A DNA stretch of 55,997 nt from Catajapyx aquilonaris (Eukaryota), in assembly GCA_000934665.2 (NCBI GenBank), contig JYFJ02002489.1, forward strand, positions 1 through 55,997, written 5' to 3'. The translations under genes and the position numbers were made by a program. Position 1 is the first letter of the stretch. Each line of letters starts with the position of its first letter. The notes below the pieces were generated by a model. That model had not been told where the DNA came from. It saw nothing but the letters and a program-made list of their open reading frames with translations, and made no database searches. Of the stretch, positions 19,630 to 45,333 are shown piece by piece.

Positions 19630-20331
19630 TTATGCAGGGGTAAAAGCAGGTCCTGCCACCATGTCTTCCCCTCCAGCGTCACTATGGGCCAGGCAGAGTA
19701 TCGGCGCAATCAGACAGGTAGATCTCGACGGACAGCAGGCATCCAGCAGGGTGCAGCAGTTTCCCTGAAATGGAAAAGCCCAAGTACGTTGTCCTCGGCG
19801 ATTCTTCTGTCACAGTCCAAGGAAAATTATATCTTCAGTGTTGAAGTACACGTTTTACTTACACGTCTGTGAGGGCAGCAGTACGTGCCTCCCAGCAACT
19901 TTCCGCAGCATTTACCGAAGCACCTGCTTCTCCCACACCTTACACCACGCCATGGTCTGCCAGGTCTGCCACCACCCTCGCCACTGCCATCCTCGCCACT
20001 GCCACCACCACCACCTCCTTCTCCTTCTTCTCCTCCACCACCACCTCCTCCATGACCCCCTCCTCCATGACCTCCTCCTCCTTGGGGTCCTCCTCCTCCG
20101 CCCCCAAATCCACCACCTCCAGGTACAAACAACCCACCTCGTCTGTCTCGACCGACGTAATCACGGTCTAAGTCATCATCTTCCAGGGCGTCCTCTCCAG
20201 CACTAATACCCTTACAAAAAAAAAGACAATATCTCAATATTAATAAATCAGAGACTGTCGATGGGCTATGTCAGACTTACCAACAGGGTGACTACAAAAA
20301 CCAGGGCTACTAGAACCACCTTCCGCTCCAT
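19630..20331 (-). CDS. Gene A: secreted precursor, signal + acidic propeptide + RDRR + Gly-rich segment + one 12-Cys granulin module (177 aa)
   Basis: Exons 20281-20331 (MERKVVLVALVFVVTLL), 19863-20210 (GISA-GEDALEDDDLDRDYVGRDRR-GGLFVPGGGG...RCGRSRCFGKCCGKLLGGTYCCPHRR), 19630-19764 (GNCCTLLDACCPSRSTCLIAPILC...*). Cys pattern C-C-CC-CC-CC-CC-C-C. TATA on the minus strand at 20371-20378. Confidence 0.85.
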
Positions 20332-20564
20332 GATGTGTGATTGTAAAGCTGCAGTCACTGGACCGGATCATTTATATACGTAGGCCTATATTCTAATTGC
20401 ATTACCCTATTGTCCCTGGATGAGTAACTGAAAGTGCAATGAGTGCTGATTCGAGGTTCGTGACATGCCATGTAAACAAAGACACACGCCTCCGTGCTGT
20501 AAACACGCTTCATACTGGATGCCACTCCCAATGATTTTATTTCGTAAAGTTACACGACTTTCAC

Positions 20565-21040
20565 TTATCCCCTTTCATGAGGGATGTCACCCGCGTCGTC
20601 ATCTTCGTCATGCACCAGGGCTGCTGGAGTTCTGGGAGTGGCGCGACCCAGAGATATGCACTTTTTGGCGTCGCTGCCGCAAACTGTGCCTTTGGGGCAA
20701 CAGTAGTCGTGGCCAGGGCAGCAGTTACCCTTTATGAACAAACACATCGTAAATTATGCATATTAGTCAGGTTCCACTATATGACAAGCTGTAAAAATAC
20801 GATGGCTTTACAGATAGTTTTTCTGCAATGCCAATACTCACTTCTGGGAGAGGGCAACATGAATGCTCAAAACGTCCTTTACAGCATGTTGATTTGCACC
20901 ATTCACAGCATGGGCGGTCTACTGCTGATGCCTATAAATTGAGAATAGGTGTAAAGACATCTTATGTTAGTTACTGTTTCACTATTTAGACTTACCAGGA
21001 GGCTGAAGCAGAGTAAGGCAAGAAGAACGTACAGTTTCAT
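20565..21040 (-). CDS. Gene B: secreted single-granulin protein with acidic tail (99 aa, 13 Cys in the mature part)
   Basis: Exons 20996-21040 (MKLYVLLALLCFSLL), 20842-20931 (ASAVDRPCCEWCKSTCCKGRFEHSCCPLPE), 20565-20729 (GNCCPGHDYCCPKGTVCGSDAKKC...HDEDDDAGDIPHERG*). TATA at about 21087-21093. Confidence 0.88.
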
Positions 21041-22533
21041 GTTGTCCTCTTAAAGAGACCTGCCTGCAAGATTTGCCAAGCGGTGCTTTTTATACTCGGA
21101 AATGACTAATAGATCATTATGAAACAATAGATAAGAATAATAATCTGTTTCATTTTCTGATGTCAGCACATAACGCTGGCTTTGTAGTCATGAACAGTTA
21201 CGGAAGTCAAGTGCTGCTGCTGTTTATTGCCTTTATGGCGACATCATTGCTATTCTTCAAACATGCTTGCAGATGCTAGAGCTAATTATTATTGACATTG
21301 TGTAAGACGTGAGTGACCCACTGAGTGACCCACTTCCACTTACATGCAGTAACGTACTGTATTGATATACCCAGTATTTTGTAGTAGCTTACCGAACCGG
21401 ACCAAAAATAATCAGATGTATTGGCCCAGTTAGCATCTCTTACAAAAATATGTGTCATGTACTGTACATGGCATCATCGTACGCTATGCCACTAAGGCGG
21501 GAGAAGGAGGGCCGGTATAAAGCGTCACAATAATGCATATTAGTGATATTGCATTAGTGGTGTTCAACATTTTTTGCTGTCGCTCCTTTATATCCACAGT
21601 GTTGTGTACTTCTAAAGTTCAAGCGAATACGTTAATGTCCAGCACAGTTTTTGGGAAATGCAACTTGCATTATAAGTTGTTCGGTCTGTGGAATGCATTA
21701 TTTTTATTACTGGAGGTGATACTGGAGGCGTCCTATAACTTTTCGGGCCTGGGAATAATATTGACCCAAAAATTGTGGTCTTATAAATTAATATGGTAAT
21801 AAGTTTATTACTGAAATAATGAATATGCCGTTGCGCAAGTTATCTTTTCGGATCCCTTTGGACAGGTACGGTACAAGATTCACCCAATGAAGAATGCTGA
21901 CTGCATATAGAAACTGTTGCTTAAAACATTGTATATCAGAGAATTAGTTGTATATTTTTTCAGTTGACATTCTGAAACGAACAGGAAATATTTGCATTAT
22001 ATTTTATACGGATGTCGTAATTGTGGCAGTTTAGCTTGTCATGCTAGTAATATTGCACATCAGCACAATATTATTGCAATGCGAACATGTTTGATTACAT
22101 ATTAGAAACACCACGTACAAGGTGCTGCCGAGTTGGTTACCTCGCGAATATCATCCAAACACCTCATTTTTCTAATAATTAGCATAAGATTGCGAATCAA
22201 TAAGCTCACTGTAATCTGTAAATATAATATTACCTTAATGCCATAAGCTAAGCAGAATAGTAATCTGTAAGGTAACTGGGATACAGCTTACTGGGTGTAT
22301 TTATGATCTTGGCCCTCATTATCGCTCACAATTCAATTTGACTGTAAATGAAGTTCGTCCTTGACTTTTAGAACTTGTGCATATGTGACGTCGTGACGAA
22401 ACATGTACGATGACGGCATTATTGATATACCTTTATAAATAATATAAAATTTAAAAGTAGTTTTTGGCATCTTTTATATATAGTAATATAATTTCACTCA
22501 TTTGATTAGATGTGCTATTAATAAACGACAGGA

Positions 22534-22822
22534 TTAATCTGCTGAACTTTGGGTTTGGGAGTGTGAATGACACAAAAGTTTCAGGCTGCATATAAAGAGA
22601 ACTTTATTTGTCAAAGGGGTGAATGAATCGCTTTTGAAGCGGCATTGCGAAGGAGTTGATGTCCTCCTCTCTCTTTGACCCTCAGTTAAGCTCTGGAAAA
22701 CAATGTGAGAAAATGTCAAGATTATTGTGTCATACACATATATTCTGGGTGTCACTCATGGAAAGGCTTACAAGGGTAGTTAAGACCACAACCAGTATTG
22801 CCAAAGTAAGTTTAAGACTCAT
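22534..22822 (-). pseudogene. Gene C: degenerate or divergent paralogue of genes D/E/F
   Basis: Exon 22772-22822 (MSLKLTLAILVVVLTTL, gtaag donor) and an exon from 22692 (SLTEGQRERR...) match the D/E/F signal peptides. The rest lacks CC pairs, an acidic tail and a second GT donor. TATA at 22876-22882 and a variant promoter motif at 22902-22914. Confidence 0.6.
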
Positions 22823-24207
22823 TGTGCCTGTGATTCGCCACTCTTGCCACGCTGCCTTGACATGATGCACATCGGTTTTATACGCGTACATGCTGGCAGG
22901 CTAATTAGCGCGTGAAACGACTAATCATTATGAATGGGACGCATTCCTTTGTGCTCAAATATCAGTACCGGTAATTAGCACGAATTATAGCTTTAAACAT
23001 CATGCATAGACAGTAGCATTTTCGAAAATATCTAAGTCAGATATTGCGGTGTTTTGAAATGTGATGCTGATATAGAGTGATAATTGTAATGCTGAATTAC
23101 TGGCGCCAATGAGGTTCATTTTTATAGCTTATACTGTATACTGCAGAGTTGTCATTTGCGGAGCTCCCAAGCAAAAGCATCTAACTCCAAGTTTGTATGC
23201 ATATTAAGCCAGCTCCAATGTGATTAACTTTTCCATAATGTTAAATATGTAAAACTAAGTTTTTTCCTATCTATATGAAACATACACACATACAAGATTG
23301 GTGGAATCAGCATTTTAACACTCTCCATATTATTGTTAAAAAATCATTTATGTGGAAAAAAATGCTTTTTTTCAAGCAAAACCAGCTAACTCCAAATACA
23401 CATTACAGTACAACCAATGAGTAGTAGAAATAATTGTTCCTAGCAACAGGATGGGCTGGAATAATCATGTATCGTACACCCCTAACTTGTAAGATGTAAG
23501 GTCAGATTTCATTACCTCCAGAAAACTTTTCGGCTGGAAAAGGGACAGAAAAGTTTGTTAATACACTGGGTAACTAACTATTGATAAAATTAAAAACTAT
23601 TTTTTGGCTCTTTTCCAGCGGGCAACTTTTCATGTCAGTGGTCCTACTACTCTACTATATCATCATAGCTACTATCATAGCTTTAACGCGTGAGAAAGAT
23701 TTGAAAAAATAATAGAGACGAACAAGATTGATATTGGGGTAAGTCGAATCTAAGCTGATTAATTCTTTTAAAACTCTCCCATCTCATGTTGTCACCCTCC
23801 CCTAGAATATCACCTAAGCAAAGATGGGTCAAGAAAGGAAGAGAGTTAAAAGTGAGTGCAACACTGCAGGAGGGGAAGATGGGTTTTTGACAAGTTCTGC
23901 CGTTTTTCTTTTGTTCAGACATACTTTTATTTCTTTGATTTGTGCGATGGTATTAAAATACTTGTAGGATATTCTGCGCAGTAAAGTTCAGTGTAACAGT
24001 AGGCTACTCATTTGCATTCATTTGGTGGCGAGTATGGGACAATGTATGCATTTGATTTTTCTTATATTCTTAAAGGATTAGTGTGTGAAAGCAAATACGT
24101 AAAATGATATAATTGATGCTAGTATAGTACTTTATTTAATAAAGGCATAAATATATCGCTTTTGACATCGGTTTCAAATCATTAAGTCGCGAAGGGGAAT
24201 CTTCAGC

Positions 24208-24696
24208 TCAGCCGTGATGTCCATGTCCTCCACCACCGCGATGTTCGTCAGAAGTCGCGTCGGCCTTTGCGTCAGCAGCAGCGTCAGCAGAATCGGCGAT
24301 TACATCTCCGTCTTGGTAACTGATGTCGTCGGCGACGTCAAAGGCAGCTGAGGAGTCGGCGGAGGAGTCGGGGTTGTCACCAAAGATGCGCCAGCGGCAG
24401 CATCGTACCCTTCCTCCAATTCGGCAGCAGCGGAACTGGAAAAGTCCAAACGGCATTGGCCGTATTAGTTACATGCATAGTACATTGTATAAGACAGTAG
24501 TGCAAAAATTATGTGCGTGGTACTTACACCTCGAGGACAAAACCGGCAAAATCGTTGGGCTTCAGTTACGGTCTGGAATGCAAAAAAATAGTGAAGAATT
24601 ACAATTTCATTATGTATACTGTCATTGCAGCTCTATATGACTTACAAGGACAGCAAGGGCCACTAGCAGCAGTGCCAAAGTCAGTTTAGGACTCAT
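24208..24696 (-). CDS. Gene D: secreted Arg-rich 6-Cys peptide precursor with acidic C-terminal piece and His/Gly tail (107 aa)
   Basis: Exons 24646-24696 (MSPKLTLALLLVALAVL), 24528-24572 (TVTEA-QRFCRFCPRG), 24208-24435 (FRCCRIGGRVRCCRWRIFG-DNPDSSADSS...DE-HRGGGGHGHHG*). Canonical gtaagt/cag sites; TATA at 24765-24771. Confidence 0.88.
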
Positions 24697-24784
24697 GGTT
24701 ATTCTTGTGCTTGCTCTGTGCTACTCGTCTCGAGACACACTGCCCTGTCAAGTTGCACGTCCAGTTTTATACTCATCTACCAAC

Positions 24785-24797
24785 TAATTAACACGTG
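24785..24797 (-). promoter_or_regulatory. Conserved E-box+TAAT motif (CACGTGTTAATTA) upstream of the gene D TATA box
   Basis: taattaacacgtg on the + strand, about 20 nt from the TATA box; the same motif is at 28912-28924 (gene E) and 32317-32328 (gene F). Confidence 0.6.
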
Positions 24798-25687
24798 GAA
24801 CTCTTCTAATCATTATGGTGTAGCAAATGCTTATATGCATATTAATACCAGCCATTGGCACGAATATTTTGAACGACTTGCTCAACTGGGTAATTTAGCA
24901 GAATTAAGATTGTAGTAAGCTATACTGTATAAACCACGCGCCAGATCTTCATTTTTAGGGATACTACTATGCCAAGCTGATTTTATAGACTTTTCAGAAA
25001 CTCCTCTCCCATCACAGTCACGCAACGACAAAATGTGTGTTCACAAGATCGCTAGAATCAGTCGTATAGGGGAAGTGAGAAGACAATATTTTATAGCGGA
25101 TTATAGTCATTGTTCTCTCGCCTAATGTCTAGGCTCTAGGTTTTCCATTTAAAACACGGGGATATGTGATATATGTTGGCAACACTTGCAGCGTCATACA
25201 AAGTCTAAATAATTTTTCAACAGTTTGTGAAATATTATTCGGACGCAACTATTCGAGTACCGGTACTGTACAGTACATTACATTTTCACGTCTTGTGAGA
25301 CTCCACCGAATATTCTACCACCTTAGCCTTGGTACCCATCCCATGTGTATAGAATGATTAGAATGACAGGTTTTATGTATGGCTCCTCGACACAAAAAGA
25401 GGTGTTAGAGAAACACACGCTCTGAATTATTTTGCGGCAAATTTTTGTTCTAGTTTACACAGGCAATCTAACGGGAATGCTACTTGTAGTGCAGAAAGAG
25501 TGAAAACCACTCAAATGGATAATAAAACGATTATAAGTTAGGAAGCAAGTAGCAGAGACAATTACAATACAGGACTAAATCGTAAAGAAGTAGAATAAAT
25601 ACGGCATAATTTTTAGAGGCACGTAATCCTAATATAGGCCTATACTGTACAAAAAACGAGAGTAGATGTACAGTACGTATATATATA

Positions 25688-27029
25688 TTTATCACGCCTA
25701 CTTAACCCACTCTCCGGGTACTGAGAGACCTGAAATTTTTCACACCTATGCCTTACCTTTCAGTGACCCCAGGAAAAGTCCGAAAACCCTGAATATTTGG
25801 CAACAATACGAGTTATGAACCAATTTCCGTATTTAGAGCACTTTCATGGCCACACTGCAGTGCTATACCAGCAGGGTAGCACTGCAGTGTGGCCATGAAA
25901 GTTGCTAGGGGAGGTTTCTAGACTACAGGGTGTCCCACAAGTCTGAAACCATCATAGGTCATTGTTGTATTGTAGGATTGTATTGTTGGTTTCTAACAAG
26001 TTGTGCCAACTTGCACTTTGTTCACAGTCAGAAAAGGTTGAGCACAGTTAGCAAATTTGGTGAGGAAAGGGAACTATTTCCGGTTGCAGGGAGGTCAAGA
26101 AGATTGTGAATCATGATTCGCAGGTGCCCTGCCTTCAAGTTCATTTCACTGTTCAGGCCAAATTTAAAATGTCGGGAAAGAGGAAGGGGTTGACCCAGGT
26201 TCAACCTTGGTTCAACGTATTGCCCGTGTCATGGCCGATGGTCCAATAGAGGAGGCAAAAGTAATAGCCCAAAACTGGGGTGGAAAAGTTTAGTACAGTG
26301 GTTCCCAACATGTGTGGCGTGCCCCCTTGGGCCTTGAGGGTCGCGCGGTGGCCTGGGTAATTTTTACTTGCAAGAAATTTTATCAAAATTTCACCACGAA
26401 TGTTTTTAAATGTTTCATATGTCTACAATACATTAATCTTCTACCACTGGCTTAGTGCTTCAAATGGGTGGGTGGCTGGAAAGTTTCCGCAAAAGGCACA
26501 TAATTTCATGGAAAACAGTGTGTGGTGATGCAAGTGCCGTGAATCTCGAAGTAGAATATTGGAAGAAGGTGGGAAGCGTTTGTTTGGGGTAAGTTATTCC
26601 AAAGAGAACATTTTCAACTGCAAATGGAACTGCACCCCCTTATTTTAAAGATGTGCTGTATACGCCAGATACAACCGTAGGGTAAAACATACTATTCCAC
26701 AAAAATGCTTCTGTATGGAGTTATTTTGCACCATATTGAGGCAAGGTGCTTACTTTACATCTCCCCATTTTCCTCTATTTCTCACCAGCAAAAAAATCAG
26801 TGACGTCCTTGATCTGAACATAGCTTAAACCTATCCAGTACGGAATTTTTTGGGGGTCCAGTGCGAAGGAATGAGGTCTTTGAGATGTGGGAAATATTTC
26901 AGTGACAGGTGTTTATAAGACAAAGTTTGTTTGTCTGTTTGTCTGTTTGTTTGTTTGTCCATGGTAACGGGTTTTTGTTGGTGAGTATTACGGAAACAGG
27001 GCGTGCGAAGAACGGGCTCCTCTGCTAGT
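25688..27029 (+). mobile_element. Non-autonomous Helitron/Helentron-like element
   Basis: Starts tttatcacgcc and ends gggcgtgcgaagaacgggctcctctgCTAGT (short sub-terminal inverted pair cacgcc/ggcgtg, CTAG end). (GTTT/GTCT)n tract at 26925-26958; internal inverted segments; 26-bp perfect hairpin at 25840-25902. Confidence 0.55.
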
Positions 27030-28314
27030 AGACCATATAAGTTGCGTCCACTAGTCGCCTACACATTCGTACATATCGCTCAAAACGATGGATTTTTCAT
27101 TGAAACCAAATGCAAAATTATCTCCATATTTTAGCGACATGGTAGGATATACATAGAGTTCATTCTATGGTGATATGACAACATTAGGTCTACACACGTA
27201 TTATTTTGCAACAGCAAAGGTTCTTGTTCCTTTACCATCCAGTTCTAGTATTAACTCCAATTTATTACATTTTTGTTTTATGGGATTAAAGCGTCCGGCG
27301 TCTTTACATTAACAGTCCACAATAAAATAGGCTCTATTCCGCCGTTTACATTTTATTCAGGTAGTAGCACTAACTTATCACTATAAATACACCACAAATA
27401 CATTGCCCGCTGAGTTTTAGTTAGCTCATTTTTATACGAAGAATGATTATGCTTAATCGACAATATGAATAATATATTGTGCCATTCATTAGTAACAAGT
27501 GTATTTCAGTGTCTGTCAAATCAATCACGATTTGAGATCACTCCTACTCTCACTTTTAATGATATACAGTATTTTCTTCGAATTTAGTTAGGCACTGTAA
27601 TAGAAAACGTACTCTGTATGGACCAAAAAGTTTCAGTCGCCGATGGTGAAAAATCCTGCACAAGTTCATTGCTGGAGATGAGTCCATTAGAATACGGAGA
27701 ATAAGATATAGTACGTGTATTATGCTTCCTCCTCCAGAAATATTTTTGGCAGCCGAGAGAGCCTTATATGGGGCTATGGAGGTAATATATTAAAAGACGA
27801 GATAATAGCTTGGCTGTGAGAGTGCTCGAAGTAGGTCCCCAAAAATTGGTTAATATTACACTGTTCGAAAATATTTCAGAATCGGCATAATTAGTTTGTG
27901 CGCAGTTGTAGCGCATGATATGCGTCATGTGATTATATTGAATTTTGAATAATTTCTTAAAAAATGACGGCGAATCCCCAAGCAGTTGTTGCATTTTTGG
28001 AATTCCGTATAATATAATTGTAGAAAGTTGCTTCTGCTCCAACATCTGTGGAATGTGAAGTAGTGAAAAGGCAAGGTGAGGCATATTTTTCCAGGTGTAC
28101 GTGTAGTAATAAAGCTTCAAAAGAGCGTCCTCAGCCATGTCTTGGTAATGCCTCCCTATTCTATGGCAATTGAAAACTGACTCCAGTATTATGCCTGGTA
28201 TTCCCATTCCCAAAACAACTATGGCGATAACTAGGAATGCTAAAAAGTTAAATCAGAATATAATTTTAATTCAGCAATATATTTATTCCCAATCAAGTTT
28301 TATACAGCAGGTGA

Positions 28315-28832
28315 TTATTCGGCTGCGGCTGCTGCTTCATCATGGTGGTGATGATGGTGTCCTCTGCGATGTCCTCCTCCACGACGTCCATCATCAGCGA
28401 CGGCTTCGTCAGATGCAGCAGCGGAATCGGCAGGTGCAGATTCGTCGAAGAAGTCGTCATCTACGGCGTCGGATGAATCAGCGGAGGAATCGCTTTCATC
28501 ATTACGGCCTGGGCGGCAGCAGCTAACTCGGCCCCGTCTGCGGCAGCAAACAAGCTGCAACATGAGACAAAAAGGAGCACATTAGTAAAGAATTTTGTTG
28601 GTTCTTCATACGGTACATGAATGCAGCACACTTACGGGACGACAGCATCGGCGTCCGCCACCACCACGACATGCCCGGCATCCCCTCTGAGCTTCAGTCA
28701 GGCTCTACAAACAATAAATTTTTAAAAATGCAAATTGATTGACATCACTATGACACGATGTAAATTTCACGTTATACTTACGACGACCACCAGGGCCACC
28801 ACCAACAGTGCCAAAGTGAGTTTGCAATTCAT
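28315..28832 (-). CDS. Gene E: secreted Arg-rich 8-Cys peptide precursor with acidic piece and poly-His tail (119 aa)
   Basis: Exons 28782-28832 (MNCKLTLALLVVALVVV), 28636-28704 (SLTEA-QRGCRACRGGGGRRCCRP), 28315-28554 (LVCCRRRGRVSCCRPGR-NDESDSSADSS...DDG-RRGGGHRRGHHHHHHDEAAAAAE*). TATA at 28890-28896. Confidence 0.88.
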
Positions 28833-29732
28833 GATGCTCGAGTTGTGTTAGTACTCTTGATACAGATCGATGTGAAGCAGTGCTGTTAGTTATATACCTG
28901 CTCCAGCCACATAATTAACACGTGAATAACTTTGGACATTAGCTGTGTGGCACGTCCTTCTATGCCTAAAAATCGAGCAATTAGCACGGGCAGTAGTAAT
29001 AGAGCACGCAATACTTAAGAGTTTTCCTTGTCTTTGCAGTATATGGTCAGTCCTGATGGCTTGGTCTGCAATTTTTTCCAAGGGTATATCAAAGCAAAAC
29101 TTAAATAAAATACATTGTCAACTTGTTATTTCTCACACCATGTTCTCGGTGCAAAAGTTGCATTTGAAAGTGTGTAAGTATTATAATAAACCTTTGAAAA
29201 CTACGGTACTGTACGTGCTTCATCTACGATGAATGACGGCCTAAAGTACGAGTACAACCTTTAAAAACCAGTCGCAAAATAAAACATCTGTAATTTAGTG
29301 ATAAAATGTTTTAAAAAATTGCAAGCTTTATGTTAAGCAGATTCAAATATGTAAATCAGCACAGTATTTAAAAATAATAGGCAAATCCAGTAATTATTAA
29401 TGAGTCCCTTTCATCAGGCTATTTCTTCTCCCTTTCCTCTCAATTTCATGACTTATCAATATCGGTGAGTTTCCAATAATTATAATCAGAATTCCGTAAG
29501 TAATGAACAATATTTATTATGATATATTTATTAATTTGTTGCTGCAGGGAGGATACACCCCATATGCATACAGTCCATAAAGTGATAAGCATTTCACTCT
29601 TTTTACTAAATGAAAATTAATTACATTATGGAAATGTTTATGTTGCTTACATGCACTAAACATGATTGCTATTGAATTGCTACATACTGAAAAGCAGCCA
29701 ATCTTGCAGTTCCATATTCAAATTTTTCTTTG

Positions 29733-30136
29733 CAGGGTGTTCCCAAATTCGTCTGCCACAATGATACGGGTGGTAAGGAGTGCATATGGAAGAAGCATGG
29801 CATGGGTCCGAAAGGCCGGCGACGACGTCGGCGTCGACGTCGACGATGTACTACATCCTGACAAGATAGTATGTATACCACCGTACATGCCTGCATTGGT
29901 GGTTCCTGGAGTCAGGCGGTTAAGCAATGGTCTGGGTGCGCGAGAGCCTAACCCCGGCAACCAGCAATGCAGGCATGTACGGCGGTATCCATACTTGTCA
30001 GGATGTACATCGTCGATGTCAAAGGTCGACATCTCCAAAACGGATCGTCGCGTCGCCTGCCTTTCGGACCCATGCCATGCTTCTTCCATAAGCACCCCCT
30101 ACCACCCTTTTGGCATACGAATTTGGGAACACCATG
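29733..30136. mobile_element. Tc1/mariner-type MITE with long imperfect TIRs (copy 1)
   Basis: Ends cagggtgttcccaaattcgt / acgaatttgggaacaccatg followed by TA; nearly the whole element folds back; a related copy starts at 46963. Confidence 0.8.
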
Positions 30137-30395
30137 TATATAGGGCGTCATCTAGCATCTATAAAAAAAAGACAATGACGCCGCATTGACCAAGACAGTC
30201 CAGGGGTGCGAAGGATGAGAAGGATCACAAACCTTCCATTTTCCAGAATAAAACAGGAACAGTTACAATTAATAGTTATTAATAATCATGTAAGTAACCG
30301 GATATTTATTATTTTATGTAGGTTCTGGAATATATTTGCCCCTATATTTATTACCTAATGACACCAGCACATTACTTGAGGTTGGCTCCAATATA

Positions 30396-31454
30396 CAGTT
30401 GAATCCGGATATAACAGCCGCGGCTGTAACAGATATTCGGTTATAACAGACCCGAACGCTGGCCCAGGCCCTATGTATTTTTACTCATGATATACCGTAA
30501 CACTCATTTTCACCCCATCTCGAGTATAACAGACCATTTCCTGGCCCCTCAGTGGGAAAATAATATGCTGCTTTTGATTACTCGTCTTCCTTTCCCACGA
30601 GAGGAAAGCACGTCATAATGGAGATGTGGTGATTTTCCCATCTGTCACTGATCTAACACTAGCCGAAATGGCCTTTCTGGTATATTTGCACAGACGGCAG
30701 AAGAAAATAGGGTCATTCCCACGTGCCACAAAATCTCGATCTTGAACCACGTTTCTGACTGGCAAAATCAGGATGTGATCAGGATCGTTTGGTGACTGTT
30801 TCCACGGGCCAGGTACTTTTCGTGATTTTCGGTGGAGTGGTCTGTAACCACGCCCACCCGCCTGGCGAAAAAATGACTCTCGCTTCGGCTCCCGGACAAA
30901 GGCACGGGTGACTCTACGATAGGCCTGGCTGTAATAGCATGGAGGCATGCTATCTACGTTATTACACAGGTCCTGGCTGCCCGCAGAGCGAGGGGGCAGA
31001 CACGTGGGCAGACGGGGCCAAGCAGGGAGCCGCCATGTTGCCCGGTCCGGAGGGGGGAGTGACGTCAGGATCGCGACTCATAAGGTGGCAGTCAACTTCT
31101 ACAAGCTGGCTGCCACAGTCACCTTTGTAAACGCGTTCGGGTGGAGGAAGGGCATGTGGGAACACCCCAATCACGACTTTCGGGGGTAAGGATCATGATC
31201 CCTGTGGCACGTGGGAATGACCCTAATGACGGATTTTTTTGGTCCTTTCTAAGTTATGGGTGAGCTAATTTTGCCTGTTTGTGTATATAGTATCATTAAT
31301 CAACATGCAGTAGCGGTGTGCATTATAAGCATAATTATGAAAGCTGAAAATTGTGGTTTTTGTTGCAAAAGTGGGGATTTGGCTATAGCAGACATCGGTT
31401 ATAACATACTGATTTTCTCGGTCCCTTGAAGTCTGTTATATCCGGATTCAACTG
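30396..31454. mobile_element. TA-flanked pogo/Tigger-like non-autonomous DNA transposon
   Basis: TIR cagttgaatccggatataacag / ctgttatatccggattcaactg; TA on both sides; sub-terminal cggttataaca repeats. Confidence 0.82.
30709..31224. mobile_element. Nested non-autonomous DNA element inside the pogo-like element
   Basis: 22-bp perfect TIR agggtcattcccacgtgccaca / tgtggcacgtgggaatgaccct; AAT on both flanks (30706-30708 and 31225-31227). Confidence 0.75.
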
Positions 31455-31796
31455 TATTATAGTGCATTTGTTGTTTTATTTTTTGCGCTTCTTTTCTCCC
31501 ATGTAATCCACAATTATTTTGGTACCAAAAATGATGAATCCTTCTTAAATAAAGTCTTACTGTCATAAAATGTTACTACAATATGAGCCAGAAACAAAAA
31601 CTTTTCAAAAACTGCAGAAACTCTGGAACATTGTATTGCCATGCTTTGTAAGGAAATTAAAACGCATTGTTTGAAGCTGACAACTAATGGAAACATCGCA
31701 CAATCGCCTATTTGTGAGAAATACAAGGTGTTTGTCTCTATAAGATTTTATTATACAGTGGTCATGCACACACTGATATCTCCTGATATCAGATGA

Positions 31797-32232
31797 TTAA
31801 TCAACTAAATCGTCGTGGTGTCCTCCGTGATGGTCTGAAGTATCGGCCGCAATTTCATCGGAACCGTCGTACTCATTGGCGTCAAAGACGACAGGACCAG
31901 AATCTGCAGAGTCGTTGCCATCCAATAAAAAGCCACGGCAGCAATAAAAATGTCCCCGAAGGATGCAGCACCGCGACTAAATAGAAGAGGAAATTATTAA
32001 AGTTGTACCACTTTGTACTGAATATAATTATTTTCGATGTATAGTAGCAAGAAAGAGTACACTTACGAAGAATGGGCAACGTATCGGGCAGCCAAAAGGA
32101 TGAGCTTCAGTCAGACTCTAAAAAAACAACATTAAATGAAGCCCATATCTTTGCACAAAAAAGGCTCCTTTTACCTACCAGGACCGTAAGTGCCACCAGC
32201 AGCACTCCCAAAGTCACTTTGAAATTCATCAT
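31797..32232 (-). CDS. Gene F: secreted 6-Cys cationic/hydrophobic peptide precursor with acidic piece and His tail (94 aa)
   Basis: Exons 32179-32232 (MMNFKVTLGVLLVALTVL), 32067-32117 (SLTEA-HPFGCPIRCPFF), 31797-31976 (SRCCILRGHFYCCRGFLL-DGNDSADSGPVVFDANEYDGSDEIAADTSDHHGGHHDDLVD*). TATA at 32296-32301. Confidence 0.87.
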
Positions 32233-32951
32233 GGTGGTCTATGTCAATGCTCACTCGACTTGCACAGATCCTTGGGAAGAACCACTGTGTCACACTTTAT
32301 ACCCTATCCATCCGCCTATTAACACGTGTAGTTATGAATATTAAAACGTGAAATTATGAGGCAAGACCTTCCGAGGTTAGAACTATTACCAAAGACAATG
32401 ATTGAAGTTTCATATAGGCTTATCTTAGTACTAAATGACGGCACTGGCTAACTCAGCATTAATTTTTAATCGCGTCTGTGACAAAATGTTTCCTCAATAT
32501 ACTGGTATATTGAGAAAATTATACATTATATCCAACAATTATAGAGTTTTCTTCTTACCATTGCCGCTTACTTTGTTACCATTGTTACTTCAGTTAGTCA
32601 AGGTGGCGTATACCTGGCACACTGTATTTTCGCTGTTTCCACATGCAAACGCTGATGGCATCGTCACGATGGGGTAGCATCTCATCGCAGTGCCCAGTAG
32701 TGGTCCACAATTAGTTGAAACATACAGTAGTTTATAAAATCTGAAGCCTGAGGCCATGTCCTGTATCCATACTATATCATGAACGCTCTACCACAATGTT
32801 GCGTGTAACATGTATATATGTATTTTATAGTAGACTCTACAATAATATGATGCCAATAAGTTTTATTAGTACATGAAAGTTTATATCGAAAGCAGTGCTT
32901 TATTTATTGCATAATATGGATCAGGATAAGTGCCATATAATGTGTTACAAT

Positions 32952-33930
32952 TTACTGCATCTCTATGAGAGGAATTTTCTCAGGTAGAAATACGTTTCTG
33001 GATAGCAAATAACAACTCTGCTCGCGTAAATCGCAGAAGTAGTTGGCTGGGCAGCAGAACCGTCTGTCAGCGCAACACACAGCCTGTAAATAAGTTATTA
33101 TCGACTGATTAGTCACTCTCAATATAACATTTTAATAGTAGCCTGTCATACCCGAGTGGTCATGCCACCCATACAATTCACAAGGGACCTAAATCTGAGC
33201 TGAACTGAGCACCTGTTGCACCACCACGTATATTCGAAAAATTCGTGTCATTCTCACATGCACAGTGCGTTGTCGCAGGCCTTTGCACGTTAAAATAAAT
33301 TATATAGAAGTATCACTGACTACATCTTACGTTTGGCACGGGGCAGCATCCATTAGAATTGCTAACTTTAAGGCAGCAGGTTTCTTCAATACCGCAGGAA
33401 CTTCCGTCTTGGCAACGTCGGCCGGGTTGACGTTCTTGCCCAAACTAGTGACGTCAAGGATGTAAGTAAAGGGAAAAATAAATTAGAACTCATACTGTAC
33501 ATTATTAATTATTCACTGCCACAATGGGTCTCATAATAAAAGTTCTTTACATGTACAGGGTGGTGCTTTGCTCTGGTCCCCATTTCAAAGGAAGCACAGT
33601 GGATTGTTTATACCAGCAACAAGCTCAAGTCGCGGAGAAACAACAGGGACATAGGCTTTCATTAAACTTGTCTCTGATATAAGGAATCCAAGTGGGGGGT
33701 TGGGCAGGGCACAGTCCTGTACAGTGTATATCTTAAAAACTATATGTAATATATGACCTCGTATATGCCGGTTTTGGTCGTTTAATATTACAGGCACAGT
33801 GTATGGAATGCAGCTGGAATATATATTCGCAATATGTAATATAATGTATCTAAAAATATTCGAAACTTACTACCCCGTGAATGAAAAGCAGCAACATCAC
33901 GAATACGATCAATCCAGTTCTGTCAGCCAT
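32952..33930 (-). CDS. Gene G: secreted single-granulin protein (101 aa)
   Basis: Exons 33871-33930 (MADRTGLIVFVMLLLFIHGV), 33331-33444 (FGQERQPGRRCQDGSSCGIEETCCLKVSNSNGCCPVPN), 32952-33083 (AVCCADRRFCCPANYFCDLREQSCYLL...*); canonical 12-Cys granulin spacing. Confidence 0.9.
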
Positions 33931-34233
33931 AACAATCTGCACCGAATATAGGTGTAAGAATCTGAAAGCTGAAATGAGGCATCTGATACATTTTGGGCTA
34001 AATTATGGCCACGGTAAGAAACTGAAGGACGACTTACCTATTTCCGGAGATTCTCTCAGCTGACTTGGAATGGACTTGCTCTTTTTCCCAGTGACCCAGA
34101 AACATAGAAGCCCCACCTACTAACACCAGTTGTCCGTAACTTGCCGATCCGGTCTTCGCATGGATATTAATCTTACAGATCTGCACTACTTATCTGTCAC
34201 ACTGGAATAACGCATTTTGAGGTTTTCAGGTAC

Positions 34234-34328
<95 letters not shown>
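34234..34328. repeat. (AAT)n microsatellite, about 31 units
   Basis: Uninterrupted ATA/AAT run between the divergently oriented genes G and H. Confidence 0.97.
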
Positions 34329-34623
34329 TTTACTATTGGCTATATAGTGTGAAAGCAGCAGTGATGTGAACAGTGTAGCATGAGTGCATGGCAATATTAT
34401 TTCCTAATTACCCACGTGGTAACGAGAGGTGTTACAAAACATGTCATTGTTCTTCAATAATATTGCTGACACCATGAAAATCTCAATCTCTTAAAAGGAT
34501 GCAGAAGGCAAGTAGGGATGGACAGTCTGAACCAAGGTAAGTTGGTTTTCGGTAGGTCCATTTATTTTGTCCATTTATGCAGTGCATTAAAATTTCGGCT
34601 TGATTCTAGGATCTGGAACCACG

Positions 34624-35114
34624 ATGCATCTGTACTTGATTTTCTTGGGCGTCATTTTGACCATTTCCTGTCAAGTTGTAAGTTAACAAAAAAGTGCACA
34701 TATTACAACACAACTTGTAGGGTACTACTAAACTTCTTTTTTAAATTTAGCGAGCAGAAGTGAAATGTTCCGACGAATACACATGCGAGACCGGGGATAA
34801 ATGCTGCCCTCACAAGAAAGGTTTTGGTTGCTGTCCTCTTATTGACGTATGTGTCATATGCTGATTTTTTCACAAACAAATGACATTAACTGGAAATCTC
34901 ATTCACAATGTAGGGTATCTGTTGCAATGACGGTGTCCACTGCTGCCCTCAAGGAACAGAGTGTGACCTCACGGAACATCAATGTGTTAACAAAATTGCC
35001 CGTGGATTCAATCACGTTCCACTAACTTCATGCAAAGGCGCCTCCTGGATTGGAACCACACACCATCACGGTCACCACGGTCACCACGGTCACCACGGAT
35101 CCTGGCATCACTAA
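34624..35114 (+). CDS. Gene H: secreted single-granulin protein with His-rich tail (116 aa)
   Basis: Exons 34624-34677 (MHLYLIFLGVILTISCQV), 34751-34846 (RAEVKCSDEYTCETGDKCCPHKKGFGCCPLID), 34914-35114 (GICCNDGVHCCPQGTECDLTEHQC...HHHGHHGHHGHHGSWHH*). An upstream exon (ATG 34518, donor 34537, acceptor 34609) could add 11 aa in frame. Confidence 0.9.
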
Positions 35115-37124
35115 CTAATTTTTTACACTCATATTATAGTACTTCGTGCATCATGTAATAATATAGTATTATTATGTGACAAAAATGAAATAAACAAAAA
35201 CATATTGTTAACTGTACATATACACGAGTTGCTCATGTGTTCATTTAAAATTTTCCTTCAAGATGTTGATACTGTTGATGCAAGATGTATATTGAAGAGG
35301 TCAAGAGTCAAATAGACAAAATATGAACTCAATGCTAAAGCATCGCTTTTGACCGACTGAGAAGGTTTCGATGTCATTGGTATTAGCATAACCCCGGTTG
35401 TAGTGAGAAAAATTGAAAACTTACGGTTATTTTCAATACTGTACAGTACATTGAAAAATAATTTGCCATCACTACACTGTAGTTTGGTCTTGATCACATG
35501 GTTTTCAGAGTTTCCCAGAAATTTTACGTGATGAAGTTAAAAGCAATTTTTATTGTATAGCTGATCGTACTCGTACATGACTGTATACAGTACAGTAGGT
35601 ATAATTTGTAGTATCTTATAATTATAATATATTAGTCATAATCTGGTCATAATTCTCATAAATCATGGCTGTACACGCATCCTGGCACCTCCAAATAAAA
35701 CAACTAATAAAATAATTTACCTGCACATTGTGAGTGCAAAACATTTTGTATACAGTTCACTTGGCTTTGTTACAGTCTGTTACAGTACTACTGTATACGT
35801 AGAAATATTCCTGGCTTAGGCGAGATATCCTTTAATAAATTACTTGACATCTTAATTCAACGTTGCTTAATTTATTAGTTAATTTGTTATTTGGTCCCCG
35901 AAGCCTCTTTACTGGGATGATATTCTGCAACTACACAATGCATAAAATATCCTGCTGCAAGGTATGCGCCCCTCCGCACTTTAAAAGCTTTTACGGCATT
36001 TTATTAGCTAGCTACGTTCCCATAAAGTACGGTACCCTCTGACTAATGCTAATTATTAGCCATGAAGCTACGAAGACAAAAAATAATAAGGCAATATTAC
36101 AATAATTATGTTCCGTATCCTCTTCTCCGGAAGAAAGCATGATTATTGGTGTTAGATCTCCGAATGTATAGCGGATGATAAATGACAGACAGCTCTTCGA
36201 AGTATCTTGGTAATTTACAGTAGCTGTCAGATTTTGGTTGCGATTATATTACAATCAAGGATGAATAGATATCGATGATAGTGCAAATCTGAGAAGTGCA
36301 AATCATGCTGGAAACACCCAGTTCAATCGTGAAGTCTCACTGTTACGTAATTGGGTATAGGTGATAGGACACCTTCACAGGACCTCACCTTACATGACCC
36401 TGTTACACTCTATGCTGTATAGCAGAATATAGACATGATGACAGGTGAAGAAATATGAGCTTTCAGAGATTCTGGCATCAAAATGTTTTACAGAATGAGG
36501 CATTACGTTAACAAAATTACATTACTACTGTATTTACTGCTTGTCTAAATTATGGCAATGCAATGGGCGTCTGATTATGTTTATAAAGAGGCGACTTCTT
36601 CGAGGTCATTGCATGTCGCTCTCACATTATCACGTCATGATGACTATACAGTATACAATACGCTTCAAATATTATTAATGATTTTTCAAGTGCGTGGCAG
36701 TATACCCAGTTGACATACCAAATCAAACTGCTTGGTAAGAGGTAATCACAAGTGTCGTAATGGCAAGAAGAAAGAGACCTGCTATTGGAAGATGCTCAAA
36801 CAGAATAAACCCCAAACTATTGTGTGCTTTGATATTTTCCCATCTCAATGCACCACTATAGATATGTTACGGCCAGCGAGTATTGCACATTAATGCAATG
36901 TACTAATCTGGTACTAATACATTCACAACATTTCTTCATCCCATTAACACGTGGCCCGCATTTATATACGTGTGTTTGTCAACATGCTGCCAATATTGTT
37001 ACACGTGCTCATCGGCAAACTTATCTGCACATGCAATATAATGATGGGCAGCAATAATATGCGTGATGTATAAAAGAGACAAGAGTACAATGAGCACAAT
37101 GCGTCTCAAGGGTAGAGAAGCAAG

Positions 37125-37591
37125 ATGATCCGCCCATTTTTTCTCGTCCTTCTGCTGGCAGCTGTTTACTTGGTCGTGAGTATCTTCGTCAATCGGCAAT
37201 TACCGAACCATACATCAAAACATATTCTATTACGCAGACTGTAAATGGAAAGATACGTTGCTCGGCTAAGCACAGCTGTGACGTTGGTCAAACCTGTTGC
37301 AGACAACGTGGCAACCGATTTGGCTGCTGCCCTGTGCCAAACGTGAGCTGCAATTTGATTTCTTTTTATGTCACGCCATCTTAGAATGTTCTGCATGTCT
37401 ATATTAATGGTACGACAATTTAGGCCGTCTGCTGCGAAAATGGAGACCACTGCTGCCCCAGCGGACGATTTTGCGACATTGGGAGATGGGCCTGTCCGAG
37501 AATGAAGGCCGGAGGAAGAGCTGATGAAGATAGTAGGGGCGGCTTATTAGGCTTAGGCCTATTGAATTTGCTTGACGCAAATGAGGAATGA
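37125..37591 (+). CDS. Gene I: secreted single-granulin protein (107 aa)
   Basis: TATA at about 37069; exons 37125-37175 (MIRPFFLVLLLAAVYLV), 37238-37342 (TVNGKIRCSAKHSCDVGQTCCRQRGNRFGCCPVPN), 37424-37591 (AVCCENGDHCCPSGRFCDIGRWAC...DANEE*); AATAAA at about 37614. Confidence 0.9.
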
Positions 37592-38141
37592 TAACTTTCT
37601 GTAACTAGACCTGAATAAAAAGCCCACAAATAATAATAATTACGAGTAATATTCTGCAAATAATTCCACGTGTCACAATAATATAAATAATTCCCCAAAA
37701 CTGCCTCTTTAGACCTATCCTATAGGGTACATATAATAATAATATTTTTTTTAAAATTACTTCTGTCTAGTCACTGCAGTATAGTTACATAACATTTCAG
37801 TGATGTGTAGCAGATCTCGCAGTTATATCGGCATCAGCAAAATGCAGCGACTACCACGTCTTTTCACGCCCATGCGTGATAAATGGAAGCTAATTCCTCA
37901 TTGTAATTGCGTCTGAAATGATTAGTATGCAAAGCCCTGAGGGCATAAAATCAGGTGGGAAGAACTTCTCTGGCTATTACTGCGGAGTGTAGGAGTCGGA
38001 TCTGACGCAACTGTGAGTACAATAGTAACCGCATCAAATAAGTGAATCCTTACAACAGACATTACATCGGTATGTTCCTAAAAATGATTTGCCTTCCGTC
38101 CTCTAGAGCTAGACAAACAGAAATTGTACAACGCAAAAAAT

Positions 38142-38690
38142 ATGAGGTTCCTTTTTGTCCTGATGCTGCTTTTATCTGTTGTGGTAAGTGACGTTTATAT
38201 GGTTACGACATTTCCAAGTATTTTTCCTTATGCGTTTCATGCTAATGTTTTACGGGTCCCGGATGAGCTGCAATCTTAAAATAATGTATTAGGAAGATTG
38301 CTGCTGTGCACGAAAATATACGCTATCATTCAGGGTCGCATTGGTTGTGACTCATGTCACATACTCCTTACTGTACTTCCTTCTCCTCAGGCTATTGCCA
38401 TGAGCGCCAAGCGTTGTCCAGGATCCAACGTCCAATGTCCGAATAAGGAGACCTGCTGCAGGGGTGGATCAGGAGCCGTTTTCAAATGCTGCGGATTCAA
38501 CAATGTAACACACAATCGCTTCTCATACAAATGATGCGTTTTATTAATCCATGTATAATTTCTACAGGGCATTTGCTGTTCTGACAGACGCCACTGCTGC
38601 CCTCGTGGGCACAGGTGTGACATTGTCAACCGTCGATGTATCAAGGGTAGAAAGGGATCAGGGGAAATTGCTCAATGGAAGAGCTTCTAA
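38142..38690 (+). CDS. Gene J: secreted cationic single-granulin protein (92 aa)
   Basis: Exons 38142-38183 (MRFLFVLMLLLSVV), 38391-38504 (AIAMSAKRCPGSNVQCPNKETCCRGGSGAVFKCCGFNN), 38568-38690 (GICCSDRRHCCPRGHRCDIVNRRCIKGRKGSGEIAQWKSF*). Confidence 0.9.
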
Positions 38691-38771: not shown

Positions 38772-40270
38772 TTATTTACGCGACAATCCTGAAACATTTT
38801 CTGGTTTGATAAGTGGCAGAGTGTCATCGCAACTTTCTACAAACGAATATGGAGTGTCCAGTTTGGGGCAATACAGACCCTTGACCACTTCCAGTGCGTA
38901 GTTGGCTCTCCTCTTTGCCATCTTCTTCTCCTGCGTAATCTTCTGAGATGTCTCTTGGCGACTCCAATAGCGAAATTGTTCCACGTACGGAGTCTTCCGG
39001 ACTTCCTTGGGGACGTACAGGCCGTAACGGAAGTACCACAGATGACGACGATAAATGTTTATGGTGCTGGCAGTCTCGATGAACTCGTCCTTGAGGACTT
39101 TCAGGTCCCGCTTCAAGTCTTTCATTTCCAATAGGCAGGTGGGAAGGAGACGTCGATCTGCACATAATCGGCACAGCCTACGAGAAATGCCAAAATGCAA
39201 ATATTTATTGCGGCAATGATGCAATGAATGCTTACTAACCTGATTTTTCGGCACAGCTTGTTTCTGTTGAGACCGTGGGCACGCAGGCTTTCTTTCAGGC
39301 ATTTATATTCAGATATTATTTGCTCTTGGACCTTCAGTTGTCGTTCCAGGCGATGTTCCAGCACATAAATAAGTTTCTCCAGTTCTGGAGGAATGGTTCG
39401 CTTGTGACAACAGCAAAGAAGACCTGCAATGTGTAGGCCTAATAAGTAACATCAGTCTCAAAAATAACTAACTGGATATTTAAAGCACACTATGCCAATA
39501 TACAGTGTAAATAATATGCACGTGTCAAATACCACTAAGATTAGTGCGTGCTGGTATGTGATTTTTTGTATTGATGAATAGGCTATTCAAAGTGAAGTCT
39601 AACAGCTATATATGTCTGTCAAGTACCCCAAATTTTTGTTCAGCCTCCTGATATTCCACCTAATGATATGTTGTTTTTACAGCTTCTATCTTGACGCACG
39701 TGAGGTGGCTCACACCCTGGTTAAATAATACAATATTTAACAAAATAGTAATTTCCTGACGTTTTAGTTTTAGTCCTATATTCTTACCATTTGAGGGTAG
39801 TTTAAATAAGTCAAAAATTATTGTATAATAACAATGTAAGCAAATTTGTATAATAAATATATAAATAAATAGCATAAATATCCAAAGACTATTTTTAAAG
39901 TCCTTGCAGGTGCTATTAAGCAATCTACATCACTCACCCATTTTGCCTGCCCCTTCCTTATACTGTTGTCACTTACGGCCTCACATCCCAACTGAATTGG
40001 ATTTCGAAGCTCCCAATTTCTAGTAAAATTCAAAATGGAATGACCTAGTAGCAACCCTGGTAAAATGTTCCTTTAATAATAGCCCTGGGTGAAATGCTAA
40101 ACTCCAATGTTGTGTCAAATGTTAACCGCTTCATACTAGTAATTGCATGCTCTGTAAACACTTAAAAATGCATTAGATACATAGAACGTTGGCTTACAAT
40201 ATGGGGAAATTCCCTGAGTCAGTCTCCGTCCTCCTTGACATTGAATATTTGACCCAGACGCATCTAGCAT
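38772..40270 (-). CDS. Hypothetical basic, partly coiled-coil protein (about 220 aa, 3 exons)
   Basis: Exons 40198-40270, 39240-39423 and 38772-39177 join in frame through GT-AG sites: MLDASGSNIQC...CLLCCCHKRTIPPELEKLIYVLEHRLERQLK...LCRKIRLCRLCADRR...GLSRK*. No family recognised; first exon less certain. Confidence 0.6.
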
Positions 40271-41839: not shown

Positions 41840-42187
41840 ATGAAGGCTGTGGTAAGTATTGCCTTGGTTTGTTTCTAGAAGTCACCAAGTTCCATTGATT
41901 AGGCTATTAACTTACGCTATTATTTCATATCTGTTTAGTTCGTAGCTCTTTTTGTACTGGCACTGGTGGCACTGGCTGTAGCCAACCCCCGCCGCGGTTA
42001 TGGCTATGGCCACGGCGGATATGGTCATGGTGGTTGGGGTCACGGTGGCTATGGTCATGGCGGATATGGCGGATATGGCCACGGGGGATATGGCGGATAT
42101 GGCCACGGGGGGTACGGCCATGGGTATGGTCATGGATACGGTGGACACGGCTATGGAGGGTATGGTCATGGACATCATTACGGTTAA
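41840..42187 (+). CDS. Gene L: secreted Gly/Tyr/His-rich peptide (86 aa)
   Basis: TATA at 41751; exons 41840-41851 (MKAV) and 41939-42187 (FVALFVLALVALAVA-NPRRGYGYGHGGYGHGGWGHGG...GHHYG*); probable 3'-UTR intron from 42192; AATAAA at 42438. Confidence 0.9.
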
Positions 42188-45197: not shown

Positions 45198-45333
45198 GGT
45201 TACTCACTCAATGAGAGAATTATTCCGAAACATACTTTTGTAGCCTACTACACGTTTGGGTTTGCACTTTTTCAGAGTGCACCTGCTAGGGTTATCAGGC
45301 CGTTTGGGATAAGTAATGCATGTAAGACACATA

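Follow-up and report, generated by a model that had tools for sequence, protein, structure and literature searches.

The window analysed here is a stretch of 55,997 nucleotides of Catajapyx aquilonaris (contig JYFJ02002489.1, positions 1 to 55,997, assembly GCA_000934665.2), and its part between positions 19630 and 38690 (~19 kb) holds nine intact three-exon genes (A, B and D to J) together with one degenerate gene (C). Six of the intact genes (A, B and G to J) encode predicted secreted products built around one granulin module each, and the other three (D, E and F) encode shorter, arginine-rich peptides with fewer cysteines. Genes A to G lie on the minus strand and H to J on the plus strand, with intergenic gaps of 0.2-3.5 kb, and the products are 92-177 aa long (Table 1). 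The gene models were rebuilt from three-frame displays and their coordinates checked by script, while the signal peptides are predictions, judged by eye from the hydrophobic first exons. When every stop-to-stop frame was searched for open reading frames (ORFs) rich in Cys and bearing CC pairs, granulin-like pieces turned up only at ~19.6-38.7 kb of the window, which as a whole has ~41% GC and short GT..AG introns.

A first-pass annotation of this DNA had credited all nine intact genes with a signal exon of 14-20 codons, two phase-0 introns and a third exon that begins x-x-C-C, and every element of this architecture was re-derived. The first exon starts with ATG, is hydrophobic and falls within the range of 14-20 codons in all nine genes; the two introns of each gene are bounded by GT..AG and lie in phase 0 without exception (18/18 for both features), four of them, in G and J, measuring 169-426 nt and the rest 61-112 nt; and exon 3 opens two codons ahead of a CC pair in 9/9 cases. 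In all nine genes intron 1 splits the signal peptide a few codons ahead of its likely cleavage site, where exon 2 opens with a small-x-small motif. A scan of the whole window for signal exons, taken as an ATG and 11-23 codons with a hydrophobic tail and a consensus donor, returned 13 rows, of which 11 were cluster genes and the other two lay at 6133 and 31577; gene H fell below the hydrophobicity threshold and was missed by this pattern.

Table 1. Genes of the granulin-type cluster and other features of the window, with positions numbered from the first letter of the stretch.
Feature	Position	Strand	Exons or parts	Exon 1 codons	Product (aa)	Cys after signal exon	Description
Gene A	19630..20331	-	20281-20331; 19863-20210; 19630-19764 (introns 70 and 98 nt)	17	177	12	Divergent granulin module
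Gene B	20565..21040	-	20996-21040; 20842-20931; 20565-20729	15	99	13	Single granulin module
Gene C	22534..22822	-	Signal exon 22772-22822 (GTAAGC donor); exon 2 acceptor 22692				Decayed gene
Gene D	24208..24696	-	24646-24696; 24528-24572; 24208-24435	17	107	6	Short Arg-rich peptide
Gene E	28315..28832	-	28782-28832; 28636-28704; 28315-28554	17	119	8	Short Arg-rich peptide
Gene F	31797..32232	-	32179-32232; 32067-32117; 31797-31976	18	94	6	Short Arg-rich peptide
Gene G	32952..33930	-	33871-33930; 33331-33444; 32952-33083	20		12	Single granulin module
Gene H	34624..35114	+	34624-34677; 34751-34846; 34914-35114	18	116	13	Single granulin module
Gene I	37125..37591	+	37125-37175; 37238-37342; 37424-37591	17	107	12	Single granulin module
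Gene J	38142..38690	+	38142-38183; 38391-38504; 38568-38690	14	92	12	Single granulin module
ELP6 exon	965-1696	+
Kinesin motor exon	16162-17853	+
Palindromic repeat, one copy	29733-30136						Candidate foldback or MITE-type element
AAT/ATT microsatellite	34221-34352
Adjoining ORFs	38772-39451	-			176 + 109		Probably exons of one further gene
Gly/Tyr/His-repeat peptide gene	41840-42187	+	Two exons				Predicted secreted product
Receptor-like gene	42746-45203	-					Ionotropic-receptor-like
Palindromic repeat, other copy	46963-47349						Candidate foldback or MITE-type element
Receptor-like gene	48058-50329	-					Ionotropic-receptor-like
Gly/Tyr/His/Arg-repeat ORF	54317-54622	+

That A, B and G to J hold one granulin module each had been claimed before, and it is borne out by Pfam matches above the cut-off for B, G, H, I and J and by a profile built within the cluster for A. 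The Pfam scan was run on 16 exon translations taken singly, exon 2 of D and of F (15 and 17 residues) being too short to be included, and the Granulin family (PF00396, gathering score 20.9 bits) matched seven of them: exon 3 of B (22.6 bits, profile positions 18-42), G (32.9 bits, positions 18-41), H (32.4 bits), I (27.8 bits) and J (33.1 bits), and, below the gathering score, exon 2 of G (16.4 bits) and of I (17.1 bits), both over positions 1-17. No Pfam family was found at E<=10 for either piece of A, for exon 2 of B, J and E, or for exon 3 of D, E and F, and exon 2 of H gave a weak WAP match only (E 0.02). The closest solved structures to exon 3 of J are human granulin-2 (E 1.5e-6), granulin-5 and granulin A, and zebrafish granulin AaE. 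Taken with the share of cluster genes among the signal-exon rows, the seven Granulin matches lead us to reject a chance origin of the cluster. Because exon 2 covers positions 1-17 of the profile and exon 3 positions 18-42, intron 2 falls between positions 17 and 18, and in 6/6 module genes exon 2 ends in a CC pair followed by four residues and exon 3 resumes in phase 0 with x-x-CC. The junction of N-type and C-type granulin exons is likewise placed four residues past the second CC in the passages on gene structure of a published account (PMC4527844).

Within this common plan the modules differ. The motif C-x5-6-C-x5-CC-x8-CC-x6-CC-x5-CC-x4-5-C-x5-6-C is matched exactly or within one residue by G, I and J, all three of which are canonical single modules with 12 Cys, and does not describe D, E or F; the product of I has a mildly acidic tail, and that of J has a core of net charge +9 and no acidic part. 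Gene H adds a 13th Cys and a CC-7-CC spacing, and ends in a His-rich C-terminal tail (11 His in 24 residues), and gene B, also with 13 Cys, has shortened first loops and an acidic tail. The signal exon of G given in Table 1, with a GTAAGT donor, is the best candidate from the window-wide scan and replaced a weaker alternative of 13 codons at 33614-33652. Gene A is the most extended product, in which the signal is followed by a long Gly/His/acidic N-terminal extension, a divergent N-half, a C-half and a short acidic tail, so that a +7 module stands between acidic and Gly/His-rich extensions, the Gly/His stretch alone running to ~60 residues. Its Cys spacing is C-4-C-3-CC-8-CC-6-CC-5-CC-5-C-6-C, with the first loops shortened, and it scored 19.6 bits against a profile of the spliced modules of B, G, H, I and J, a value reached by 0/300 full shuffles and by 13/300 shuffles that kept the Cys fixed; we read it as a divergent granulin module.

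The view that these are separate genes rather than parts of one progranulin agrees with what surrounds each of them. Every intact gene starts at an ATG of its own, with its own signal exon, and ends in an in-frame stop, the granulin genes have one module apiece, and both strands are used. Upstream of the ATG, 6/10 genes carry a strict TATA box (A at -47, B at -54, C at -60, D at -75, E at -64 and I at -56), against a background of 3.1% at random positions of the same window, and outside this strict count a TATAAAG can be read ~67 nt upstream of gene F. A poly(A) hexamer (AATAAA or ATTAAA) occurs within 150 nt past the stop in 9/9 genes, against a background of 19%, with AATAAA at 145 nt in A, 24 in B, 28 in E, 45 in F, 44 in G and 23 in I. 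Each copy looks like a transcription unit of its own, and upstream consensus donors hint at a possible short non-coding first exon in each of G, H and J, for which a GTAAGT ~85 nt ahead of the ATG of H is a candidate donor. The array as a whole appears best explained as a tandem family of long standing, in which ten small genes are transcribed independently and have putative secreted Cys-rich products.

The short members had been described as Arg-rich peptides with 6-8 Cys, and the counts obtained (6, 8 and 6 for D, E and F) agree. Their cores span 24-32 residues; the tails abound in Asp, Ser and Ala, with a Gly/His or His run at the end. In D the core is C-2-C-5-CC-7-CC, with a charge of +8 and a pI of 11.2, and the tail of 60 aa carries -11 and ends in a Gly/His run; in E the core is C-2-C-7-CC-4-CC-7-CC (+11, pI 11.4) and the tail of 64 aa (-13) has a His run; and in F, the least cationic of the three, the core is C-3-C-5-CC-7-CC (+4, pI 9.0), with a His-containing tail of 44 aa (-13). 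Gene C had been called degenerate, and so it is: its signal exon is homologous to those of D, E and F (63-76% nucleotide identity) and its exon 2 opens with a motif common to these three genes, yet this exon keeps a single Cys, the Cys framework is lost, and neither the frame displays nor the ORF scan revealed a CC-bearing third exon downstream. Gene C is a decayed member of a subfamily formed by C to F.

The copies have diverged widely. When the window was compared with itself, only three of the 15 off-diagonal matches touched cluster genes; among what this comparison aligned, C and D are 67% identical over 183 bp that take in the 5' flank and exon 1, and D shares 81% identity with E and F over 48 bp of the signal exon. 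Nucleotide identity of exon 1, which is 63-76% among C to F (75-76% for F with D or E), is 22-55% elsewhere, and gene A, at 41-53% to C to F, is no closer to them than unrelated members are to each other. Between D and E, 200 nt of upstream sequence and the three exons can be aligned (z 8-18 against shuffles) and both introns cannot, and the mature regions of D or E and F are no longer alignable as DNA. Substitutions, counted by the Nei-Gojobori method on protein-guided codon alignments, which somewhat inflate the contrast between silent and replacement changes, gave for D and E a pS of 0.68 and a pN of 0.26 (99 codons, Fisher p 6.5e-10), for the D-F and E-F pairs a pS of 0.59-0.63 and a pN of 0.33-0.37, and for the module genes among themselves a pS of 0.73-0.79 and a pN of 0.47-0.56. 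The saturation of synonymous sites indicates that the duplications are old, and the excess of silent changes shows constraint on the coding sequences.

The statement that no described family has this layout was not contradicted in protein, metagenome or literature searches, and neither Pfam nor the protein searches joined D, E and F to a named peptide family unrelated to granulins, a match that the first-pass annotation had named as evidence against its proposal. Against a word index of 5.8 billion proteins, exon 3 of E returned eight candidates, none at E<=10, and exon 3 of H two candidates, with no relative found. The sole HMMER match to a profile of exon 3 of D, E and F among 1.84 billion representatives (E 3.6e-4) was a repetitive protein of 208 aa that shares just a CC-R...SS stretch with the profile, and it was rejected as spurious. 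A metagenome scan yielded 128 pattern matches and a single tblastn-confirmed locus, which lies out of frame in a long ORF of a 66%-GC contig and was put down to chance, and the matches of exon 3 of E in the PDB were to His-tags only. Penaeidins have a C-C-CC-CC framework, and these and other named Cys-rich families of antimicrobial peptides (AMPs) in Pfam gave no match at E<=10 to exon 3 of D, E and F or exon 2 of E. Two core peptide strings of the short members were not found in the literature available, none of the 15 papers listed there in a search for tick salivary granulins mentions 'granulin', although small granulins may occur in ticks, and the portions of the literature available describe no invertebrate-type array of one-module granulin genes with truncated cationic members. 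Small three-exon genes often escape gene callers, so that what these blanks show is a lack of annotated or assembled relatives on record, and not that none exists.

With progranulin and other granulins (PF00396) the module genes have in common the 12-Cys module, the split into N-type and C-type exons and probable secretion; they differ in that six one-module genes lie within 19 kb in place of one multi-module gene, in their variable Gly/His-rich, His-rich and acidic extensions, and in the short first loops of A and B. Single modules as such are known, for the available text of one study describes GRN-1 and GRN-2 beside an eight-module progranulin in the liver fluke Opisthorchis viverrini (PMC4618121), and a one-module granulin gene is mentioned for C. 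elegans in the consulted section of another, which mentions families rich in granulin genes (3-6 members) only in teleosts (PMC4527844). A parallel in layout is found in these fish: according to the accessible part of PMC1310530, zebrafish grn1 and grn2 are tandem, head-to-tail short forms of 1.5 modules and five exons, recent duplicates with 92% identity, and the short forms of zebrafish and carp are, like the genes reported here, small precursors with canonical intron positions made from distinct transcription units. Unlike the teleost forms, the Catajapyx genes have exactly one module and three exons and are too diverged for DNA alignment, and the array adds truncated cationic members.

The short peptides can be compared with paragranulin, a natural half-module, and with mini-granulin peptides (the conotoxins MiXXVIIA, Vc7.2 and TxVIIB). 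D and F have the C-C-CC-CC pattern of a half-module, and their C-5-CC and CC-7-CC loops equal those that occur in the N-halves of the cluster, CC-5-CC being the spacing of 6/6 C-halves; granulin half-modules fold on their own, as reported in the available part of PMC11035057. There is, however, no demonstrable sequence homology to the mini-granulin peptides, the cores of D to F are strongly cationic and bear long acidic tails, E has eight Cys, and the conotoxin framework is C-C-CC-C-C where D and F have C-C-CC-CC. Mussel mytilins and myticins and horseshoe-crab tachyplesins combine a signal, a cationic Cys-rich peptide and an anionic C-terminal extension, and D to F share with them this three-part charge layout only, without sequence relation or a conserved processing site.

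Position and gene structure argue for a common descent of D, E and F with the granulin genes, which on this basis we hold to be somewhat probable. The three are placed between B and G and share their strand, their number of exons and their intron phases; they also have in common with their neighbours the point at which the signal peptide is split and the x-x-CC start of exon 3, and a shortened first Cys loop is seen in the neighbours A and B too. A signal, a cationic disulfide-rich core and an anionic extension are the standard design of many AMP precursors, and this is the layout of D (+8/-11), E (+11/-13) and F (+4/-13). From this precursor design we tentatively propose, at a little short of even confidence, that the locus could be a host-defence effector array. 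The signal peptide, with its last few residues encoded at the start of exon 2, would be removed, the modules would fold as disulfide-laddered stacks of beta-hairpins and D, E and F as half-size, paragranulin-like versions of them, and the acidic extensions would neutralise the cationic cores during export and then be cut off, leaving the released peptides to act on microbes; under this scheme D to F would most likely have arisen within the array from a granulin gene by partial loss of the module. The more specific proposal that D to F might be free-standing cationic half-granulin defence peptides born by module truncation, with A and B as intermediates and E as an 8-Cys step, we regard as rather doubtful. 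The equine neutrophil peptide eNAP-1, a granulin-like antimicrobial with a granulin-type Cys pattern and measured antibacterial activity, offers a functional precedent, albeit as a vertebrate leukocyte peptide, in the portion of the review that is available (PMC3179947). Also counted in favour of the defence reading are the +7 core of A with its acidic extensions and the presence in the vicinity of two more genes whose predicted secreted peptides are rich in Gly, Tyr and His.

Several results weigh against these proposals. An hhalign comparison of exon 3 of D, E and F with the granulin C-half profile gave a probability of 1.2%. Against the in-cluster N-half profile D scored 4.1, E -0.5 and F 6.2 bits, values reached by 2-3/300 full shuffles and by 27-60/300 Cys-fixed shuffles, and because the latter attain them so often, the likeness of D to F to granulin amounts to Cys spacing alone; against the C-half profile the scores were lower still (D -2.3, E -9.1 and F -4.6 bits) and were reached by 54-160/300 full shuffles. 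The N-half is the best-fitting register, and it clashes with the conserved position of intron 2 and the x-x-C-C opening, which imply a C-half. Two histories may be envisaged: D to F may be paragranulin-type half-modules whose second intron has moved, or, as the first-pass annotation implies, their exon 2 may have been shortened by new donors, with exon 3 as a remodelled C-half. A nucleotide alignment of exon 2 and intron 2 of the three genes, searched for a shifted donor, is compatible with this second history and too weak to claim it. At the DNA level C, D, E and F are tied only to one another and none of them to the granulin genes. Of the earlier suggestion that a single-module granulin gene was tandemly expanded here and then diversified into a graded series, the tandem expansion stands, and the granulin descent of D to F is not borne out by the hhalign value, the lack of a Pfam match or the misfit to the C-half. 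The same annotation saw in this diversification the pattern expected of an immune or toxin effector family and called for a substitution test; the comparison of D with E reveals purifying selection in the core and no sign of the diversifying kind, which weakens the expectation of an arms-race effector. No dibasic or other conserved cleavage site was found at the boundary between core and tail in D to F, and G and H are neutral or acidic, a poor fit with membrane-active peptides. The granulins covered in the available text of PMC3179947, eNAP-1 excepted, are presented there as growth factors that lack antimicrobial activity.

The module genes might alternatively be ordinary single-module granulin paralogues with signalling or lysosomal roles, and D to F an unrelated orphan family that came to lie among them. 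The Pfam Granulin matches of B and G to J, the human granulins that head the PDB matches, the non-cationic G and H and the failure of the profile tests to show homology between D to F and granulin would all suit this explanation, as would the single-domain granulins and tandem short-form genes already known from the parts available of PMC4618121, PMC1310530 and PMC4527844. Nevertheless, six diverged copies with such a range of charge and with Gly/His/acidic extensions would be unusual for a conserved growth factor, and it is hard to see how an inserted unrelated family would come by the exon number, intron phases, signal split and strand of its neighbours; we judge this explanation unlikely. 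Far harder to sustain is the notion that the units are relics in decay, or that they make up the exons of a single multi-module progranulin transcript; gene C is clearly degenerate, but nine of the ten genes keep intact ORFs and canonical splice sites, pN is far below pS, and the separate starts, signal exons, stops, TATA boxes (6/10) and poly(A) signals (9/9), on both strands and at distances of 0.2-3.5 kb, leave it extremely improbable.

Two further explanations concern the use to which the secretions would be put. Gly/His-rich and acidic compositions of this kind occur in structural proteins, and the Asp/Ser/Ala tails with His runs of D to F, the His-rich tail of H, the long Gly/His stretch of A and the two genes for Gly/Tyr/His-repeat secreted proteins nearby could all be taken to mean that the locus makes matrix secretions of a cuticle, cement, jaw or shell type, engaged in cross-linking, metal binding or interaction with minerals. 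We consider this quite unlikely, given that the products are very small (92-177 aa), that peptide precursors typically join a cationic core to an anionic tail, and that, to our knowledge, granulin modules are not known as matrix components. The peptides could also be offensive secretions of venom or saliva, akin to the granulin-like conotoxins of the mini-granulin fold, and the C to F subfamily, in which the signal exon is conserved (63-76%) and the mature parts are divergent, does follow a toxin-family pattern. Long acidic tails are nonetheless atypical of the conotoxin layout, and the purifying selection on the D-E core speaks against such a use, which leaves it very unlikely even though mini-granulin folds are found in three conotoxin superfamilies in the available text of PMC11035057. 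The host-defence array is the reading that we prefer, with the reserve expressed above.

The surroundings of the cluster contain features of other kinds. To its left lie two exons that Pfam assigns to ELP6 (E 1.3e-30) and to a kinesin motor (E 5.5e-30). The best relatives of the ELP6 exon among 5.8 billion proteins, from a bat and hymenopterans, are just 25-34% identical, which indicates that annotated proteins cover the source lineage poorly. A candidate foldback or MITE-type element is seen in a palindromic repeat of ~400 bp; its two copies match each other, and their own reverse complements, at 72-75% identity, and one of them lies between E and F. The head-to-head spacer of ~700 bp between G and H contains a long AAT/ATT microsatellite. 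Past gene J, two adjoining ORFs without a Pfam family are probably exons of one further gene. The two-exon gene that follows has a first exon of four codons, a GTAAGT donor, an intron of 87 nt and a TATAAAA ~88 nt upstream, and its predicted product consists of a hydrophobic leader and ~65 residues of GYG/HGG-type repeats up to the stop. Such a product resembles glycine-rich antimicrobial or structural peptides. A second ORF near the right end of the window has a hydrophobic leader followed by Gly/Tyr/His/Arg repeats, with no poly(A) hexamer within 300 nt, and both peptides could be either antimicrobial or structural. Between them stand two divergent ionotropic-receptor-like genes in tandem, with long exons and Pfam Lig_chan matches (E 2.7e-8 and 7e-4); the nearest protein clusters to one receptor-like exon are commonest in Arthropoda and Nematoda, which we take as a lead only. 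No Rfam families and no tRNAs were found in a scan of the window.

Granulins have mostly been studied as modules of one large precursor tied to dementia, wound healing and cancer, and why the module is conserved and what single modules do are open questions in the field. Single modules, tandem short forms and half-modules were already known, and what appears to be new here is an array of one-module granulin genes with truncated cationic members. Should the genes turn out not to be expressed, or to be simple growth-factor paralogues, what is left would be an unusual expansion of a gene family. Six diverged one-module genes together with three shorter cationic relatives would otherwise form a natural series in which the folding requirements of the module and the conversion of a scaffold into an effector could be followed. 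D, E and F would be new candidate antimicrobials stabilised by disulfides and would offer natural versions of the mini-granulin scaffold, on which wound-healing peptides are now designed, and, should their birth by truncation prove true, an AMP family would have been born from the scaffold of a growth factor, granulin, with the series preserved in one 19-kb locus.

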